DNA of 64,000 bases from Escherichia phage LF82-4: the sequence record PV660448; one strand, 5' to 3'. Below are positions 1-55,028 of this stretch, in pieces (within the stretch, counting starts at the first letter, position 1; every line of letters begins with the position of its first letter). The notes beneath the pieces were generated by a model. It had not been told where the DNA came from, ran no database searches, and saw only the letters and a list, made by a program, of their open reading frames with translations. The position numbers and the translations under genes were made by a program.

Positions 1-183
1 AGGAGCAGCAAAAATAGTTAAGCCTGATTGCAGCCCTGCATTCAGTGCACCACCTAGTGCGATATTCAACATCGGAATACGAGTAGGGACTTCATCACGA
101 TTATTAAACAGCTTAGACTTAGTCAAGTCTGCAGTCATTTTAGAAGTAGAAGCTTTAATCAGACGAGATTTTAAATCAGACAT
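1..183 (-). CDS. uvsX: UvsX recombinase, N-terminal fragment (gene continues beyond window start)
   Basis: ATG at 181-183 (minus); translation MSDLKSRLIKASTSKMTADLTKSKLFNN... matches T4 UvsX N-terminus as recalled; open to window edge. Confidence 0.85.
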   Translation of the reverse strand, partial: MSDLKSRLIKASTSKMTADLTKSKLFNNRDEVPTRIPMLNIALGGALNAGLQSGLTIFAAP

Positions 184-281: not shown

Positions 282-830
282 TTAACGAGCCCATTTGATG
301 ATTTCTGTAATCAAACCATTACGTTCGCTTGCATTAAATCCTATAACTTTGTTAGCACCATCATGATTAAGTAATTGATATGTTTGGATTTTGTTATGAA
401 TTGCAAACTCTTCAAAATGTGAAATGACTGTATTAAAACCGAATGAAGACAAAGTAATAAGGTCGTCTTCAAAACTTTCAGTCATTTCGTTACGTGTTAA
501 AATAATTGTGAACACATCATGGTTTTGGCAAAGACGAACATAGTCCTGTTCATAAACGTCAAGAACCGAGTCCGCATCTTGTCGAATACGCCCATAAACC
601 CAGTTACTAATATATCCACGGTCTAACAGATAAATCTTAGTAGGGTCTAAATAATTCAACATCGTTTCGAAACAGCCAACTTCATTTCGAGACTTAACAT
701 CGAAACGCCCATCAACTGTTCGTTTAGGGAAATCAATCTTTACATATCTTTCACTAATTTCCATTATGTCATTAATGAAAGTTGTTTTACCAGCATTATC
801 TGGGCCGTCTACTAAAATAATTTTAGCCAT
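282..830 (-). CDS. thymidylate-kinase-like P-loop kinase (occupies the locus where T4 has beta-gt)
   Basis: 182 aa; Walker A GPDNAGKTT near N-terminus and DRGY LID-like motif typical of dNMP/TMP kinases; ATG start; stop 1 nt after upstream gene. Confidence 0.6.
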   Translation of the reverse strand: MAKIILVDGPDNAGKTTFINDIMEISERYVKIDFPKRTVDGRFDVKSRNEVGCFETMLNYLDPTKIYLLDRGYISNWVYGRIRQDADSVLDVYEQDYVRLCQNHDVFTIILTRNEMTESFEDDLITLSSFGFNTVISHFEEFAIHNKIQTYQLLNHDGANKVIGFNASERNGLITEIIKWAR

Positions 831-831
831 T

Positions 832-1731
832 TTATTCCTCGATTACGACATCTTCGTATTTAGGTATATTATACGGTGAAGAAATTAAAGCATTAAAGTA
901 GATGAACTCACCAAGACCTGGATGGAATACTTCTTCAGGATTTTCGAAATATTGAATTTTCGGACGTCCTTTAAGAATTTGATAGTACTCAGTTTTAGTT
1001 GGTTTAAAAATTCGAATCAGCGCTTCTTCAGGATACTTATTTCTGTCGAAGCTATTATTTGGATCGGTTATATAAAGCGGTTGACCTAATTGAATTGCAC
1101 ATTCAACCACTTGTTCAAAACGATAACATGGGTCACTAATTCGAAATGGATGAAAAATACCATCTAGATGAATAGGAGCCAAATCACCTACAAGACGCTG
1201 CATGATGGAAGGACGTATAACTTTCTGAGTTACGATAATCTTATTACCATCTGCACCGGCGTTAACCAGCACTTCTTTTTGACGTTCATTCAACACGGTA
1301 GTTTGAAGTGAACGATTAACTGACAACATATCGGTTTTTAAGAATTCGTCAATATAAAAACGTGGTTTATTAGGGTCTGCCGTGATATTGAAATTGAATT
1401 CTACATCAAAAGCGCCGTCATATCCAGTGATATCTGTTATTAGAAAATCACAATCATAATAAGCAATTAATGAATCAACCACAAATTCATTTTCAGACCA
1501 GAAATATTTACGAGTGTTATACGCGTTATCTTTATACCATAATGGAACAAACTTAAATTCCGGGAAAAGACGTTCACATTCTTTAATATCAGATGCATTA
1601 CGTGGATATGTAATCACATCACCTGGATTAGCACGGTGCAAATGAAGTTGGAAGTTGCCATCCTTAAGGATAGCATACTGTCCAGTTTCATAAGACCGCA
1701 TACTCAAGATAGGTACGCGGAAAATAGCCAT
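832..1731 (-). CDS. hypothetical 299-aa protein; candidate DNA sugar transferase by position only
   Basis: ATG overlaps stop of gene 42 (TAATG coupling); sits between uvsX and 42 where T4 has beta-glucosyltransferase; no motif recognised by eye. Confidence 0.55.
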   Translation of the reverse strand: MAIFRVPILSMRSYETGQYAILKDGNFQLHLHRANPGDVITYPRNASDIKECERLFPEFKFVPLWYKDNAYNTRKYFWSENEFVVDSLIAYYDCDFLITDITGYDGAFDVEFNFNITADPNKPRFYIDEFLKTDMLSVNRSLQTTVLNERQKEVLVNAGADGNKIIVTQKVIRPSIMQRLVGDLAPIHLDGIFHPFRISDPCYRFEQVVECAIQLGQPLYITDPNNSFDRNKYPEEALIRIFKPTKTEYYQILKGRPKIQYFENPEEVFHPGLGEFIYFNALISSPYNIPKYEDVVIEE

Positions 1732-2447
1732 TAGTCAAGGAATCCTTTAACATAATCAAAATCACGTTCAAACACATGGGCACTTACCATGGTATGAGTA
1801 TAATCACCAACTTCTACACCACATTCGTTAGCGATATAATGAAGTAATTTTCCTTGGAGATAAAAATCCAACTGCATAACAACAGCACAGTTCTGAGAAC
1901 GCATATGACAGTGGGTATAAAGCTTACCGTCACGAATATAATAAGTCACTGAGTCAGTACATGGATATTCAAGTGTTTCGTCCGAATCAAGCAAAGCCTG
2001 ATCAGAACTTTCTAGAATTTGGAACACAACTCTTCGAGAGTTAGGTTTCTCTTTAAGTTCTTTTAGAAGAGCTGGTAATTGGGCCGCAATGCGAGGACCA
2101 TAGAAAGTGTTGAAGTTCGCCGGCAAAGCGTCTGATTTAGGTTTAGAAATAAATTTAGCGACATTAGGATATGCCTTAAACGCTTCTTCTGCATCAGTAC
2201 CACCAGAAATCATAAACTTCCAGAAGTCTTCGGCATATTCATAAGAGATGCGGTTAATACGTGGGTCGGTCATTTTGAATGATGATGGATTGTCAACAAC
2301 TACTGTCATGGACCCGATTTCATTACAACGTCCAATACGAGAATCAGTTACGAATTCAGGATTTTCTAAAATTTCACGATTGACTGCTTTAAATGCGGCT
2401 TGAAAATCTGCGGCTTTGATATATTTCATTGTGTTATGTTTTCCCAT
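1731..2447 (-). CDS. 42: dCMP hydroxymethylase (thymidylate synthase fold)
   Basis: 238 aa; TS-family pattern incl. catalytic-Cys region EYPCTDSV and RSQN...QLDFY segment; GAGGT RBS 5 nt before ATG; T4 synteny. Confidence 0.85.
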   Translation of the reverse strand: MGKHNTMKYIKAADFQAAFKAVNREILENPEFVTDSRIGRCNEIGSMTVVVDNPSSFKMTDPRINRISYEYAEDFWKFMISGGTDAEEAFKAYPNVAKFISKPKSDALPANFNTFYGPRIAAQLPALLKELKEKPNSRRVVFQILESSDQALLDSDETLEYPCTDSVTYYIRDGKLYTHCHMRSQNCAVVMQLDFYLQGKLLHYIANECGVEVGDYTHTMVSAHVFERDFDYVKGFLD

Positions 2448-2489: not shown

Positions 2490-2729
2490 TTATTTGAATT
2501 TCTTGGCAATGTTGATATAACGTAAAGCTTCAGAATCTATACTTCCAAGAACACTATGAAGGAATGCATCAGTGTAGTATTCCAATTGAACAGGTTCTTT
2601 AATCACTTTAGCCGCTTTGGTTTCAAACAGGCCCATAAGGGCCTTTTTAAGAATTTGTTCGTTAGTGTTCAGTTTTATAGTCAAAATCTCTTCATTAAGT
2701 TGGTGGTTAAAAGTTTTTCTAGAAATCAT
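2490..2729 (-). CDS. hypothetical protein (79 aa)
   Basis: ATGA overlap with upstream 386-aa gene; no TM segment so not an Imm homologue. Confidence 0.5.
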   Translation of the reverse strand: MISRKTFNHQLNEEILTIKLNTNEQILKKALMGLFETKAAKVIKEPVQLEYYTDAFLHSVLGSIDSEALRYINIAKKFK

Positions 2730-3886
2730 TCCGGGTACCTCAAAGCGTCATCAGAGTTAGTTATATCAATAATAGATATAGAGTTTTCTGATAACCCATT
2801 TTTAGATAACTGACGTTTATAATATCTTTCACAATATGTACACGTCGTCCCGCAGATTTCATTAGCACAATCGAAATCTGGATGTCTGAACCACCTTTTT
2901 TCTAAAAAACCGTCTAACAATGAGGTTTCAATATTTACTGTATGTGAAAACTCAGTCTCATTTTCAAGAGTGAAAATAGTCTCTAAAGGCTTCCACAGTT
3001 CTAACAAATTACCTTCAAACTTTTCAGAAGCGTATGCTTCAAGAACTTTCAAAATGTAGTCTGTGCTACCTGTACGTCCTGAAACTTTGAATTGAGTGAT
3101 ACCAATATCATTATAAAGTTTCAAATCTTGAGGACGAACAAAACGAGTTCTCAACCAGTTAAATGGGTCTGTATCACGAGCTTTAATGCAGTGTTGCATT
3201 GGATATCCATTTAAGGATTTAGCATCATCAGCTGTAACATCAGTACTATGGAAAATATAGCAAGAGTCACGATAACTACAATGTGTTGTATACCCTTTAC
3301 CAGCATTAGAACAGAACTCATTTACAAGAACTTCAAATATTATATTGTTCTTATTGCAAAACTCTGCTGCACGCTTCAGGAAAGAAACTGAACGGTTCTT
3401 ATGAATTCCACAGCAGACCTTTTTGATATTGTATTGGTCATGTAAGTATTTTATTTGAGTTACAGCATCGACATGTAGAATTGTTGAAACTTCAATCTCA
3501 ATGTCTTTATTGACTTCACGAACAATTTCCATAACAACAGGGTTAGCGATAGTAATACGCCATACGCCTATTGACCAAAGATACTGAACATAATCCTGAA
3601 TAGCTTTCTTCTTCCACTCGACTAGTTCTCTTTTTGAACCAGGATTTATCGTGTTGAGTGTATAGTTAAAGCAAATACCTAATTCGTTACAACGTTTAAC
3701 GTAATCTTCTAACATCTTTTTGTCAACGTCAGGAAGCCTAAAATCAGGTCTGGCTGCTACAAAAGCCATTTCTCTTGTAGAGCCATATACTTCGTTTATC
3801 AAGCTATTAGGATAGGTTTTATTGAGCTCTACGATTTTATCAAGAAGAGCTAAATCAAAATTCGTTCCGATTTTAAAAGTATTCAT
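2726..3886 (-). CDS. hypothetical 386-aa enzyme; tentative resemblance to peptidase-U32 (RlhA/TrhP/UbiU-type) family
   Basis: ATG start; TIM-barrel-like N-terminal pattern and Cys cluster FCSNAGKGYTTHCSYRDSC plus C-terminal CANEICGTTCTYC; assignment by eye only. Confidence 0.55.
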   Translation of the reverse strand: MNTFKIGTNFDLALLDKIVELNKTYPNSLINEVYGSTREMAFVAARPDFRLPDVDKKMLEDYVKRCNELGICFNYTLNTINPGSKRELVEWKKKAIQDYVQYLWSIGVWRITIANPVVMEIVREVNKDIEIEVSTILHVDAVTQIKYLHDQYNIKKVCCGIHKNRSVSFLKRAAEFCNKNNIIFEVLVNEFCSNAGKGYTTHCSYRDSCYIFHSTDVTADDAKSLNGYPMQHCIKARDTDPFNWLRTRFVRPQDLKLYNDIGITQFKVSGRTGSTDYILKVLEAYASEKFEGNLLELWKPLETIFTLENETEFSHTVNIETSLLDGFLEKRWFRHPDFDCANEICGTTCTYCERYYKRQLSKNGLSENSISIIDITNSDDALRYPE

Positions 3887-3942: not shown

Positions 3943-4344
3943 TTATAGATTTGGTTTATATGATTTAAATGTTTCGAATTCGCCTTTATTCATAAGAGCT
4001 TTGAATTCGTCAGGACGCATAGCTTTGTCGTCGATAATCCAATCATATACTGGTTTATGTGTTAGCAAATTATGGTACTTCAAACCAATGTTTTCCAAGT
4101 TCTGAATCAGACTTGGGAGAATGTCAATTGCTATACGACCAGGACCTACCGACTTCATACCACGGGCAGTGTAAAGCGTTATGGTATGCCCTGCATCATA
4201 CAGAGCATTAATGGCAGACACCATTTCGACGTCTGGTTTGAAGTTCACGTAATCACGATTGTTATTCCACTCTGTTATACAATCATCGACATCAAAACAA
4301 AGATTAAGCATGTTTTCTACACGGTGCATTAGATTCGTTCCCAT
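3943..4344 (-). CDS. HAD-superfamily small phosphatase (KdsC-like)
   Basis: 133 aa; HAD motif I FDVDDCIT, motif II ITLYTARG, motif IV IIDD; alternative ATG at 4329 overlaps upstream stop (TAATG). Confidence 0.6.
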   Translation of the reverse strand: MGTNLMHRVENMLNLCFDVDDCITEWNNNRDYVNFKPDVEMVSAINALYDAGHTITLYTARGMKSVGPGRIAIDILPSLIQNLENIGLKYHNLLTHKPVYDWIIDDKAMRPDEFKALMNKGEFETFKSYKPNL

Positions 4345-6014
4345 TGATGAGTGATATCGCCACCGATTGGACGATAAGAAACACCAGTTTCTTTATCAGT
4401 TAGTACCCATTTACCAGGATTTTTTGTAATCAGAGTAGCCGTTACAGGTTCTGCTACGTCATAACTAATAGAGCCGTCTTGAAGTACACGGCCCATGTTA
4501 CGTAATTGCTTAGTCAGAAGTTCCATACCTTTATAATATGCGGCTACCGCTTTAAGTGGATTATTCTTGAAATAACCACCTAATGCAATCCAGATAATTG
4601 CCACCGCCAAATGATGATACTCGTTAAACGAACTCATCTTTCCATATTTGTAAATTAATGGATTGATGTTAATAGTCACATTACAAGTTGTTTCATCAAT
4701 AGTAAACTGTCCCCAGGTCGGATTAGCATTGAATTCATCATAACCTGAAACAGCATAAAGCACTTTAGCTTCATCATACAATTTTGGCCCGTAAATCTTG
4801 GTTTCGCCAAAATATCCACGAGGGTCGATAAACTTGACTTCGCCGTTATCAGTAATCATAGTATTACTGAAGTTCGGGTCACCATGAATAACAGAGTACT
4901 GTCCCTGAGAACGATTATGATAACGAATAAGGTGTTCTAAAGCTTGTTTCAGCATTGGCTTCAGACGTCCAATCTTAGTGTAGTTCACATGTGTGATTTT
5001 ACCAAATGAATCAATCAATGGTTGAATACTTTCACAACGATCAATAACTTTCGTATAGAATTCTTTAGTGAAATCACGACGAACAGTTTCAGGACTTACA
5101 AAATACGTGTCTGTGCTGAATTTCAGTGCATCTAAAATTGCATCAACAATTTGTGGACGAGCAAGACTTGATTTGGATTTAATATATTCAAATGCCGGCT
5201 TACCTTTAATGCGTTCCATTTCAAAGTTATTTTCATTAACAGAAACTAACTGAGGAACTGAATCTGATTTCACTTTCAAATACCACGAAATCTCATCTTT
5301 CTGAAGAGCTCGTCCCTGTTCGGTTAATGCGAATTTAGTTACAGTTTCTTCACCAATTTCAACTGCATTAAAACTACGATTAAGTTCACGAACTTCATGA
5401 GCTTTTTCAAGTTTAGGCATATCACCTAAATCAATTAGATTCATAAGCTCTGATTTATTGAATGCGCCGCTGTAAAGGAATTCTACGAAATCACGTCCTT
5501 TGCAGTATTCATGAATTTCCTCATCGGTAGAACCCATATAGAATTCCCAGTCTTTGAACTGATAAATTCCTACAACATTACCACCTGTTGAACCTACGTT
5601 AGTGATATTTTCACCGTCGAAATTATACCGACATTCGTCACCCTTAACATAGATTGCGTTAACATTCCAAGACCATGAACCAAAATCAGGAATAATATCA
5701 CACCAGTTAACAATTACATTATGGCCATCTAAATCTTTGTGTAATTTAGCAAGAGCATAAGCAGAACCATACGCTTCATCAACTGTACGAATAGTCACAT
5801 TGAACCCTTCTTGCTCACAATAAGCTCGAACAGTTTCAGCAAATTTTGAATGAACTACTACAATAATTTCATCTGCGCCAAGGTCAGAATAAATTGTATA
5901 CAAATTGCTCAGAATAGTGTCTTGTTTATAGTTAACAAGCACCTTAGGAATATGATGCGTTATTGGATACAAACGAGTTGCCAGTCCAGCACCAAGAATA
6001 ACAGCTTTTTTCAT
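4329..6014 (-). CDS. bifunctional sugar-1-phosphate nucleotidylyltransferase / APH-type sugar kinase
   Basis: 561 aa; N-terminal LGAGLATRL nucleotidyltransferase signature; C-terminal HGDPNFSN and IDPRGYFG kinase motifs (aminoglycoside/choline-kinase fold); GAGGA RBS. Confidence 0.7.
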   Translation of the reverse strand: MKKAVILGAGLATRLYPITHHIPKVLVNYKQDTILSNLYTIYSDLGADEIIVVVHSKFAETVRAYCEQEGFNVTIRTVDEAYGSAYALAKLHKDLDGHNVIVNWCDIIPDFGSWSWNVNAIYVKGDECRYNFDGENITNVGSTGGNVVGIYQFKDWEFYMGSTDEEIHEYCKGRDFVEFLYSGAFNKSELMNLIDLGDMPKLEKAHEVRELNRSFNAVEIGEETVTKFALTEQGRALQKDEISWYLKVKSDSVPQLVSVNENNFEMERIKGKPAFEYIKSKSSLARPQIVDAILDALKFSTDTYFVSPETVRRDFTKEFYTKVIDRCESIQPLIDSFGKITHVNYTKIGRLKPMLKQALEHLIRYHNRSQGQYSVIHGDPNFSNTMITDNGEVKFIDPRGYFGETKIYGPKLYDEAKVLYAVSGYDEFNANPTWGQFTIDETTCNVTININPLIYKYGKMSSFNEYHHLAVAIIWIALGGYFKNNPLKAVAAYYKGMELLTKQLRNMGRVLQDGSISYDVAEPVTATLITKNPGKWVLTDKETGVSYRPIGGDITHQWERI

Positions 6015-6055: not shown

Positions 6056-6199
6056 CTAGTTAAAGCATCCATACTTTGCTTGTAGTCCAATCATAATCCA
6101 TCCGATTATAAGAGTCGGAATCATTACTGGAGCCGTTAAGCTCCAGTAGATAGTCATGACAAGCATCAATAGTAAAAGTCCTATTGTTATTGCTTTCAT
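6056..6199 (-). CDS. small hydrophobic protein (47 aa), not in ORF track
   Basis: ATG overlaps stop of the SIS gene (ATGA); MKAITIGLLLLMLVMTIYWSL... two hydrophobic segments; fills gap 6015-6195. Confidence 0.35.
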   Translation of the reverse strand: MKAITIGLLLLMLVMTIYWSLTAPVMIPTLIIGWIMIGLQAKYGCFN

Positions 6200-6831
6200 T
6201 GCTCGCCTCGTAACATGGCACCTAGTGCACCGCCTGGATGGAACTTAAGGAAATCATTAGAGGTAAATCCACGTTCAGACGAAAGGTTGATAGCAAAAGT
6301 ATCGATAAGCGCTAACAATAATGTAGTGGACATGGTCGGAGCCAGAGAATTCTCATCAACCTCTACTGCGATGCCTGTACAGAAAGAGTAATCAAAAAGG
6401 GCTTCATTTTCTTGTGGAATGTCTGGGTTACAATGCAACAGAATCTGTTTGACGTTCGGTCGAATCATTTTAAGATGCTTAGCCACGCCTATCATTTCTT
6501 CAGTTTTACCAGAACGACTAATATGAATCAACACATCATTAGGCGCAATAAATCCTGCATCACCGTGAGAATAATGCCCAGTGTTCAAGTACATACTTGG
6601 GATACCGAGTGAAGCAAATGTCTCAGAAGCTTTAGTTGCAATATTAGCATTCTTACCAACACCTGTAATAATTACTCGGCTTTCATAATTACTAAGTCCA
6701 GGGCGTCGAAGAGTTTCTAGAATAGCATTATAACGAGCAGGGTTTTGACTAATTACTTTGGCCATAGCGGCCAAAGAAGAAGCTTGTTTTATGATTGCGT
6801 CAATAGCGATATTAATAGGAGTAGTTTTCAT
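6196..6831 (-). CDS. SIS-domain sugar-phosphate isomerase (KdsD/GutQ-type arabinose-5-phosphate isomerase-like, no CBS domains)
   Basis: 211 aa; motifs GVGKNANIA, HISRSGKTEE, APTMSTT, HPGGALG characteristic of API SIS domains. Confidence 0.75.
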   Translation of the reverse strand: MKTTPINIAIDAIIKQASSLAAMAKVISQNPARYNAILETLRRPGLSNYESRVIITGVGKNANIATKASETFASLGIPSMYLNTGHYSHGDAGFIAPNDVLIHISRSGKTEEMIGVAKHLKMIRPNVKQILLHCNPDIPQENEALFDYSFCTGIAVEVDENSLAPTMSTTLLLALIDTFAINLSSERGFTSNDFLKFHPGGALGAMLRGEQ

Positions 6832-54293: not shown

Positions 54294-55028
54294 TTACCTT
54301 AAGATTTTTTCAATTTTAGAATAAAGCTCTTCTAACGAGCCGTCGTTTGTAATAACTAAGTCGCCTTCTTCAATAGGCAACCCAGCTTCTGTAATATGTT
54401 TATCAGTGGATTCCGTACCAGAGCGAACCACATGAATAACTGTAGCACCCATCGCTCTAGCGGTTTCCATTTCATGGACTTGTCGTGTATCGGTCACAAC
54501 GTAGTAATCGAAATCACTTCCAATATAATCCATATAGTTTAATGCAAAAAGCTTAACCCAATACATACGGTCAAATAAATTAACGACAACATCCGTACCG
54601 AGGGCTTGCATAAGACGGCGGATCGACCATGTGTCGTTGATATTATTTATAGCTTCACGCAGGGCTTCATATGGTTTAATATCTAGATATGAATATCCAC
54701 CTTCTAACGATGATAATACTTTAACATTATTAATTGGTAAATATTGACTTTGCAAATAAATTAGCGCTTCTTCCAATAATTCAATAACATCCAACTTATT
54801 GAGATTTAATGGTGTTTCACGGTCGTATCCAATGCCTTCAAAGTATTCGTATTTCAACTCTGTGAATACATCAGGATTTTCAGCATGTCTACGTCCCCAG
54901 GCTATTGCTAGAGCGTCTTTAATTGGATATGCTAATTGGTATTTTACGGATTTAAAGTTTGAATTGATGTAATCAGCAGTAGTGTCTTTACCACTACGTT
55001 TGATGCCACTTAAAAAGATTAGCTCCAT
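54294..55028 (-). CDS. 1: deoxynucleoside monophosphate kinase
   Basis: 244 aa; MELIFLSGIKRSGKDTTADYI... matches T4 gp1 as recalled. Confidence 0.93.
   Translation of the reverse strand: MELIFLSGIKRSGKDTTADYINSNFKSVKYQLAYPIKDALAIAWGRRHAENPDVFTELKYEYFEGIGYDRETPLNLNKLDVIELLEEALIYLQSQYLPINNVKVLSSLEGGYSYLDIKPYEALREAINNINDTWSIRRLMQALGTDVVVNLFDRMYWVKLFALNYMDYIGSDFDYYVVTDTRQVHEMETARAMGATVIHVVRSGTESTDKHITEAGLPIEEGDLVITNDGSLEELYSKIEKILR

Follow-up and report, generated by a model that had tools for sequence, protein, structure and literature searches.

Which enzymes occupy the place of the T4 beta-glucosyltransferase gene in Escherichia phage LF82-4, and on which base do they act? We analysed a 64,000-nt stretch of its DNA (sequence record PV660448; hereafter the window), in which two coupled open reading frames (ORFs), coding for a 182-aa P-loop protein and a 299-aa protein, lie between uvsX and a homologue of thymidylate synthase (ThyA). 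A preliminary description, made from the letters alone, had given the coordinates of both minus-strand ORFs exactly and had rightly recognised the slot, which holds segA and b-gt in T4 (order uvsX, segA, b-gt, 42 by genome comparison). It had also presented the locus as unassigned, a view that we revise: the two genes form the published RB69 gp45 and gp46:47 pair. From fold, motifs, synteny and distribution, we infer functions for both proteins and, on balance, favour a package in which they act as transferase and kinase in a cluster for arabinosyl-5-hydroxycytosine. The features that the argument needs are the following.

1-183, minus strand: 5′ end of uvsX, the flanking landmark, translating to MSDLKSRLIKAS... 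and labelled RecA-like protein in Bas46 and RB69
282-830, minus strand: 182-aa P-loop kinase with predicted thymidylate kinase (TMK) fold, RB69 gp45 orthologue (ORF, motifs and homology)
832-1731, minus strand: 299-aa predicted compact GT-B glycosyltransferase, RB69 gp46:47 orthologue, putative base-proximal 5-hydroxycytosine arabinosyltransferase
1731-2447, minus strand: 238-aa ThyA homologue, predicted 5-hydroxy-dCMP (5hodCMP) synthase supplying the acceptor hydroxyl (RB69 gp48, PDB 9iqc/9ir2, residue signature)
54294-55028, minus strand: 244-aa gp1-type deoxynucleoside monophosphate (dNMP) kinase (1DEK, E 6.3e-92; PHROG 139)

Amino acid identity to RB69 is 98.9% for the 182-aa protein (gp45), 99-100% for the 299-aa protein (gp47 and gp46) and 99.2% for the 238-aa protein (gp48), while genes further along the cluster correspond to RB69 gp49 to gp53. 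The first 6.1 kb of the window are 99.4% identical in DNA sequence to Escherichia phage LF82-1, with 98-99% identity to a further 150 or so Mosigvirus genomes, Bas46 among them. Almost certainly, gp45 and gp46:47 have their Mosigvirus (RB69-type) orthologues in this pair. An RB69-type module between the DNA polymerase gene and uvsX, not found in T4, was pointed out in 2018 by Thomas et al. (PMC6024577). The stop codon of the ThyA homologue and the ATG of the 299-aa ORF share one base (TAATG, 1729-1733), a single base separates the stop codon of the latter from the kinase ATG (TAAAATG), and a consensus scan found no terminator-like site on the minus strand from 2447 to 282; the promoter and terminator scan gave a result not above chance.

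A hairpin, TGGGCTCGTTAAGAGCCA, at about 270-292 on the minus strand covers the stop codon of the kinase gene; the consensus scan made no call there, and a terminator is annotated at this place in some related genome records. The end of the kinase gene and the uvsX ATG at 183 are 98 nt apart. In the RB69 record NC_004928 (4598-5498), one extra T at gene position 545 breaks the transferase gene in two, gp46 and gp47; in the window, as in most Mosigvirus genomes, the 299-aa ORF is uninterrupted.

The 299-aa protein had been described as having no motif that could be placed, and no Pfam or NCBIfam family matched it at E values up to 0.1, nor did sequence or profile search find a PDB homologue. It belongs to PHROG 3891 (unknown function, 3.4e-156), and a search of 5.8 billion proteins returned 138 relatives, down to about 37% identity, among which all those with a named source are phage proteins. 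Its AlphaFold2 (AF2) model, with a pLDDT of 95, comprises two Rossmann-like domains separated by a cleft, the arrangement of the GT-B fold, and matches the following structures (match score last).

6kih, sucrose-phosphate synthase, 267 residues aligned: 17.4
6n1x, BshA: 16.7
2gej, PimA: 16.0
9iqz, phage HY126 glycosyltransferase: 14.4
1y6f, T4 alpha-glucosyltransferase: 13.0

Glycosyltransferases of the GT4-like GT-B type bind their donor in the C-terminal domain through Arg/Lys residues, for the diphosphate, and an EX7E-type motif. As positions in the sequence only, R197, K246 and H270-P271-G272 are invariant in the family and E275 is the majority residue; an E267-x7-E275 arrangement is present in the window protein, and E267 is not kept across the family. 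The comparison with T4 b-gt found neither sequence homology nor close structural homology. On the strength of the model, the protein is predicted to be a compact, sequence-divergent GT-B glycosyltransferase. We considered and rejected the identification of 9iqz with this protein, as 9iqz is the RB69 gp3 homologue, and likewise rejected remote homology between the two arabinosyltransferase families (hhalign probability 0.5%).

The 182-aa protein contains the Walker A motif GPDNAGKTT (residues 9-17) and the sequence LDRGYISN (residues 69-76), both noted earlier; the label 'LID-like' then given to the second was wrong, since DR(G)Y is the nucleoside monophosphate (NMP)-site motif that follows strand 3 in TMK-type kinases. 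Structurally, the protein shows the TMK fold with thymidylate kinases as its best matches, its PHROG match is PHROG 761 ('thymidylate kinase', 6e-45), and thymidylate kinases in PDB align with it over the P-loop only (E 0.004-0.08). RecA concatemers topped the PDB profile search with the kinase, which is an artefact. Across 20 members of the family, G9-P-D11-N-A-G14-K15-T16-T, F34-P35-K36-R, the start of an FPKRT motif, and D70-R71-G-Y73 are invariant or nearly so. We take these positions to correspond to the TMK motifs GxDxxGK(S/T)T, FPxR and DR(Y/H/F) of the human, vaccinia and E. coli enzymes, DRGY being one residue longer than DRY; on the same motif positions, the residue four after the base-stacking Phe is presumably Leu, in place of the Arg that reads thymine O4 in the human TMPK motif. 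No homology to 1DEK or PHROG 139, the T4 gp1 type, was found for this protein. It is therefore best described as a predicted TMK-architecture nucleotide kinase whose membership of the dTMP-kinase equivalog could not be demonstrated. The early observation that a second kinase-like gene sits in a DNA-modification locus holds, as the TMK-fold protein is distinct from gp1, whose gene lies elsewhere exactly as stated.

The neighbouring gene bears on the acceptor. It had been read as gene 42, and the locus as one for glucosylation of 5-hydroxymethylcytosine (hmC) in the manner of beta-gt. Aligned with E. coli ThyA and T4 gp42, the product of 1731-2447 keeps C146, R166 and S167 and carries N177D (cytosine specificity), L143E and D169N, whereas D169 is retained in T4 gp42; it is also near-identical to the solved HY126 enzyme (9iqc/9ir2, E 2.4e-161). 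According to Lee et al. (NAR 2026, PMC13326640), D169N is the diagnostic residue of 5hodCMP synthases, RB69 gp48 bears a flavin and turns dCMP into 5hodCMP with O2, and RB69 DNA contains beta-D-Araf-(1-3)-alpha-D-Araf-O5-dC (Araf, arabinofuranose), not arabinosyl-hmC. The chemistry of RB69 gp48 and the base of RB69 DNA together imply that this locus proceeds by hydroxylation then arabinosylation, not hydroxymethylation then glucosylation. The D169N signature and the near-identity to 9iqc point to a flavin-dependent 5hodCMP synthase, and not a hydroxymethylase, in the neighbouring position; the predicted DNA base is arabinosyl-5-hydroxycytosine and not glucosyl-hmC, with 5-hydroxycytosine (5hoC) as acceptor and D-arabinofuranose, from the downstream genes of the cluster, as sugar. 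Because the adjacent ThyA homologue would make 5hodCMP, the transferase assay on hmC-DNA proposed in the preliminary description would use the wrong substrate.

A tblastn search of 50,697 phage records found the kinase in 343 and the transferase in 348, with kinase/transferase counts of 176/176 in Escherichia, 57/57 in Acinetobacter, 25/26 in Klebsiella and 15/15 in Shigella phages; the two genes co-occur almost strictly. Moreover, a ThyA homologue with D169N/N177D/L143E adjoins a transferase-family gene in all seven lineages examined, namely Mosigvirus, Thanatos, DLP3, a Klebsiella phage, RL38J1 and two metagenomic contigs.

Shewanella phage Thanatos: synthase TH1_062, transferase TH1_063
Acinetobacter phage DLP3: synthase gp80, transferase gp79, kinase gp78
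Rhizobium phage RL38J1 (Pootjesviridae): synthase 216, transferase 215 (hhalign probability 99.3%, same PHROG)
Metagenomic contigs of 122 kb and 356 kb: transferase beside a D169N synthase

The order synthase-transferase-kinase recurs in Mosigvirus, Thanatos, DLP3, RL38J1 and both metagenomic contigs, where the downstream proteins of 181 and 185 aa belong to the kinase family (hhalign probability 99%). In the Klebsiella phage, the kinase gene stands beside the phosphatase gene and not the transferase gene, still within the cluster. RL38J1_219 is a gp1-type dNMP kinase of PHROG 139, the same PHROG as gp1 of the window, and RL38J1_214 matches the window kinase family weakly (hhalign probability 46%), its equivalence resting on position and on the fold reported for it. 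Since RL38J1 and the window each have both kinase types, two distant virus families, Straboviridae and Pootjesviridae, retain both. We rejected the idea that the TMK-fold protein is the sole dNMP kinase of non-T4 phages because RL38J1 also has the PHROG 139 enzyme. The second kinase is neither an accidental passenger nor simply the phage's only dNMP kinase. As for the transferase, the first sugar in RL38J1 is galactose, not arabinose, so that the family tracks the 5hoC acceptor and not a particular sugar, which fits a primary, acceptor-specific transferase.

On the 122-kb contig (Ga0643544_0000138), a Flavodoxin_2-family gene at 4739-5293 on the plus strand lies directly upstream of the triad formed by the D169N synthase gene and those of the transferase and the kinase; it would fit a dedicated flavin reductase for a flavin-dependent hydroxylase.

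We thus propose that the pair belongs to a cluster whose products put mono- and di-arabinofuranosyl-5-hydroxycytosine in the place of cytosine in virion DNA. In this scheme, the ThyA homologue would convert dCMP to 5hodCMP with flavin and O2 and gp1 would convert 5hodCMP to 5hodCDP, reactions shown by others (the second in vitro), while an isomerase, a bifunctional kinase/pyrophosphorylase and a phosphatase would produce UDP-arabinofuranose (UDP-Araf), as reported for HY126. The 299-aa enzyme would transfer the first Araf from UDP-Araf to O5 of 5hoC, most likely 5hoC already in DNA, and the next arabinose would come from another, GT4-like enzyme, whose gene is near rIIA (RB69 gp3, outside the window). 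The 182-aa kinase would most likely phosphorylate 5hodCMP to 5hodCDP and so supply the pool together with gp1. We consider the role of the 299-aa protein as the enzyme moving the first arabinofuranose to O5 of 5hoC quite probable; that the 182-aa protein phosphorylates a modified dCMP has about an even chance. The labels used by Lee et al. for these two proteins are 'nucleotide kinase' and 'arabinosyltransferase 1'; the same authors take the single pentose per cytosine of Thanatos as mono-arabinosylation and note that it has no arabinosyltransferase other than the counterpart of RB69 gp46:47 by synteny, a member of the present family (PMC13326640). The preliminary description had suggested that the 299-aa protein might be the DNA sugar transferase, a suggestion sustained by the GT-B fold and by the literature, which names it as candidate base-proximal transferase, and mistaken in its acceptor, hmC; its suggestion that the kinase may act on a modified nucleotide is plausible.

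Several findings weigh against this scheme. Enzymatic activity of either protein was not found in the accessible literature text, whose scope does not include Mahler et al. 2025 and He et al. 2026. DLP3 gp79, the transferase homologue, gave no arabinosylation of 5hoC-DNA on its own with UDP-Araf or UDP-arabinopyranose (UDP-Arap) in the experiments of Lee et al. (PMC13326640), and the Thanatos homologue TH1_063 was reported to give UDP-xylose from UTP and xylose-1-phosphate (PMC12838424). The 182-aa protein scores 16.3 bits against a cut-off of 83.25 for TIGR00041 and has no Pfam Thymidylate_kin match, only sub-threshold P-loop matches. Finally, gp1 of RB69 already handles 5hodCMP: gp159, of the gp1 type, phosphorylates it in vitro, and co-expression of gp48 and gp1 puts 5-hydroxydeoxycytidine (5hodC) into E. 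coli DNA (PMC13326640), so that a second kinase for this step looks redundant. The preprint of Lee et al. on bioRxiv (10.1101/2025.06.16.659550) says that the dNMP kinases expressed together with the synthases were the TMK-fold proteins DLP3 gp78 and RB69 gp45, whereas the journal version (PMC13326640) gives gp169 and gp159, of the gp1 type, with accession numbers and methods; we treat the latter as authoritative. Should the naming in the preprint stem from an experiment actually done with those proteins, evidence from living cells for 5hodCMP kinase activity of the 182-aa family would exist already.

The Thanatos result suggests a different function for the 299-aa protein, that of a UDP-pentose pyrophosphorylase which activates the sugar and is no base transferase, given that TH1_063, 48% identical to the window protein, yielded a UDP-xylose mass signal in vitro (PMC12838424). 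Such a function agrees poorly with a GT-B fold, which is not a nucleotidyltransferase fold, and the cluster already has a bifunctional kinase/pyrophosphorylase, the HY126 homologue of which makes UDP-arabinose (summarised in PMC13326640). The presence of the family in RL38J1, where galactose comes first, also fits an acceptor-specific role better. In the accessible account of the Thanatos work, contaminating E. coli pyrophosphorylase was not excluded, and the transfer assays used acceptors without a 5-hydroxyl, making their negative result uninformative (PMC12838424). We consider a pyrophosphorylase very improbable and retain the assignment as first arabinosyltransferase.

For the kinase, the structural matches to thymidylate kinases, together with the many genome records that label the gene thymidylate kinase, would also be expected of an ordinary dTMP kinase, one that raises dTTP supply, duplicates the work of gp1 and host Tmk and lacks any specific connection with the modification. 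An enzyme of this sort would hardly be confined to phages that have the synthase and the transferase for 5hoC (343 records with the kinase and 348 with the transferase, out of 50,697), and it is not at the T4 locus. Furthermore, the protein failed the dTMP-kinase equivalog model (16 bits against 83), and Leu presumably replaces the thymine-O4-reading Arg, as inferred from motif positions. An ordinary dTMP kinase is thus an improbable reading, and a kinase for modified dCMP remains our preference.

The almost strict co-occurrence of kinase and transferase, the way in which the synthase, transferase and kinase genes overlap or abut at their stop and start codons, and the maintenance of the kinase beside the transferase despite a gp1-type kinase (RL38J1_214 with RL38J1_219; the window) would also agree with a pre-replicative route, in which the transferase arabinosylates free 5hodCMP, the TMK-fold kinase serves the bulky ara-5hodCMP, which gp1 would be unable to phosphorylate, and the polymerase uses the glycosylated triphosphate. 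Free 5-hydroxycytosine in DNA is a mutagenic lesion removed by Nth and Nei, and this excision would favour early masking. However, all phage sugar hypermodifications known to us are post-replicative, including every one that has been characterised. The inactivity of DLP3 gp79 alone on 5hoC-DNA is compatible with the route, and Lee et al. point out that their experiments do not distinguish between mononucleotide and DNA as first acceptor, although gp48 and gp1 are enough for 5hodC in E. coli DNA, meaning that a 5hodCTP path exists (PMC13326640). The acidity of the transferase family (median pI 5.1, compared to 9.05 for T4 beta-GT) would be weak evidence for the route, yet DLP3 gp77, which acts on DNA, is acidic as well (pI 5.7); for this reason, we rejected net charge and isoelectric point (pI) as signs of a DNA or small-molecule acceptor. 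The separation of kinase and transferase in the Klebsiella phage also speaks against the route. We consider it unlikely; if true, it would be the first known case in a virus of sugar hypermodification before replication, and it would account for the constant presence of this second kinase in lineages equipped with one of the gp1 type. Transfer to 5hoC in DNA remains the step that we favour.

Other hypermodifying phages have P-loop kinases whose substrates are modified bases within DNA. The P-loop protein of the window could by analogy phosphorylate the 5-hydroxyl of cytosine in DNA, like the 5-hydroxymethyldeoxyuridine (5-hmdU) DNA kinases, or serve as a non-catalytic partner of the transferase. 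Both options would benefit from the tight coupling of the two genes, and a precedent for partnership is provided by the DLP3 transferases gp76 and gp77, which are active only when combined and then add further arabinose to already arabinosylated DNA (PMC13326640). Nevertheless, transfer from a UDP-sugar to a phenol-like hydroxyl requires no activation of the acceptor, and the conserved NMP-site motifs speak against both options, to which we give hardly any credence compared to a nucleotide kinase.

The remainder of the cluster continues beyond the synthase gene on the same strand.

2490-2729, minus strand: 79-aa ORF, RB69 gp49 orthologue (92% identity), between the U32 gene and the synthase gene
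2726-3886, minus strand: 386-aa U32-family protein, RB69 gp50 (99.7% identity; Pfam PF01136, 42 bits)
3943-4344, minus strand: 133-aa HAD-like phosphatase, RB69 gp51 (98% identity), AfhF-like (PHROG 1238)
4329-6014, minus strand: 561-aa putative bifunctional sugar kinase and UDP-arabinose pyrophosphorylase, RB69 gp52:53, AfhE-like (Pfam NTP_transferase and weak APH-type kinase matches; gp53 and gp52 99%)
6196-6831, minus strand: 211-aa putative arabinose-5-phosphate (A5P) isomerase at the RB69 gp55 position (the Bas46 and RB69 genes at this position are annotated phosphosugar or A5P isomerase)

An AfhF-type phosphatase converts Araf-1,5-P2 to Araf-1-P (summarised in PMC13326640) and, together with the isomerase and the bifunctional kinase/pyrophosphorylase, yields UDP-arabinofuranose, as reported for AfhE and AfhF of HY126 (PMC13326640). 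The RB69 record splits gp52 and gp53, which form one 561-aa ORF in the window. A strongly hydrophobic 47-aa ORF (MKAITIGLLLLMLVMTIYW...), hypothetical in Bas46 and HY126, lies at 6056-6199 on the minus strand between the A5P isomerase gene and the bifunctional sugar-activating gene. The 79-aa ORF is conserved and shares 4 nt with the U32 gene. The U32 members RlhA, TrhP and UbiU/V are iron-sulphur (Fe-S), prephenate-dependent and O2-independent hydroxylation factors, with cytidine C5 of 23S rRNA among their targets (PMC5727448, PMC6599085, PMC10990095). The RB69 gp50-type protein could provide an anaerobic path to 5-hydroxycytosine where the O2-dependent synthase fails; its similarity to E. 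coli RlhA is weak (E 0.05, pairwise BLAST), and the gene is present in the cluster of the Klebsiella phage and not in that of DLP3. Lee et al. (PMC13326640) give gp50 just the label 'sugar or heterocycle reductase', with no mention of the link to U32 hydroxylation.

Arabinosyl-5-hydroxycytosine DNA shields common coliphages, therapy candidates included, from restriction enzymes, some CRISPR systems and DNA glycosylases, and knowing which gene performs which step permits this protection to be predicted or engineered. The cluster is reportedly described by Mahler et al. 2025 and He et al. 2026. It is also covered by Lee et al. (PMC13326640) and in a 2026 paper of the Readshaw group (PMC13390438), and the locus, its fold assignments and the proposed roles are already known. 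What is added here is an independent confirmation of both folds, the near-strict co-occurrence of kinase and transferase, the association with D169N in seven lineages and the presence of both kinase types in two virus families. Because the co-occurrence shows that the kinase is no accidental passenger, the acceptor of the first sugar (free nucleotide or DNA) and the substrate of the kinase become the questions worth experiment.

Compared with known systems, the 299-aa protein differs in nothing material from RB69 gp46:47, DLP3 gp79, Thanatos TH1_063 and RL38J1 gp215 (PHROG 3891), apart from its intact ORF where the RB69 record is split by a 1-nt insertion, and the kinase shares its fold assignment and place in the cluster with RB69 gp45 and DLP3 gp78. 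The second, GT4-like arabinosyltransferases (RB69 gp3, HY126 9iqz, Bas46 Aat) are 366 aa long, lie near rIIA and add the distal sugar, unlike the 299-aa protein. Thymidylate kinases of vaccinia (2v54), Sulfolobus (2plr) and Thermus (5x7j) are 8-19% identical to the window kinase, which, unlike them, is restricted to 5hoC phages. T4 gp1 dNMP kinase and the 182-aa protein are both phage P-loop nucleotide kinases, and both types are present in the window genome. Lastly, T4 beta-glucosyltransferase occupies the same slot between uvsX and the ThyA homologue as the transferase described here; both would be GT-B enzymes that add a sugar to the hydroxyl group of a modified cytosine.

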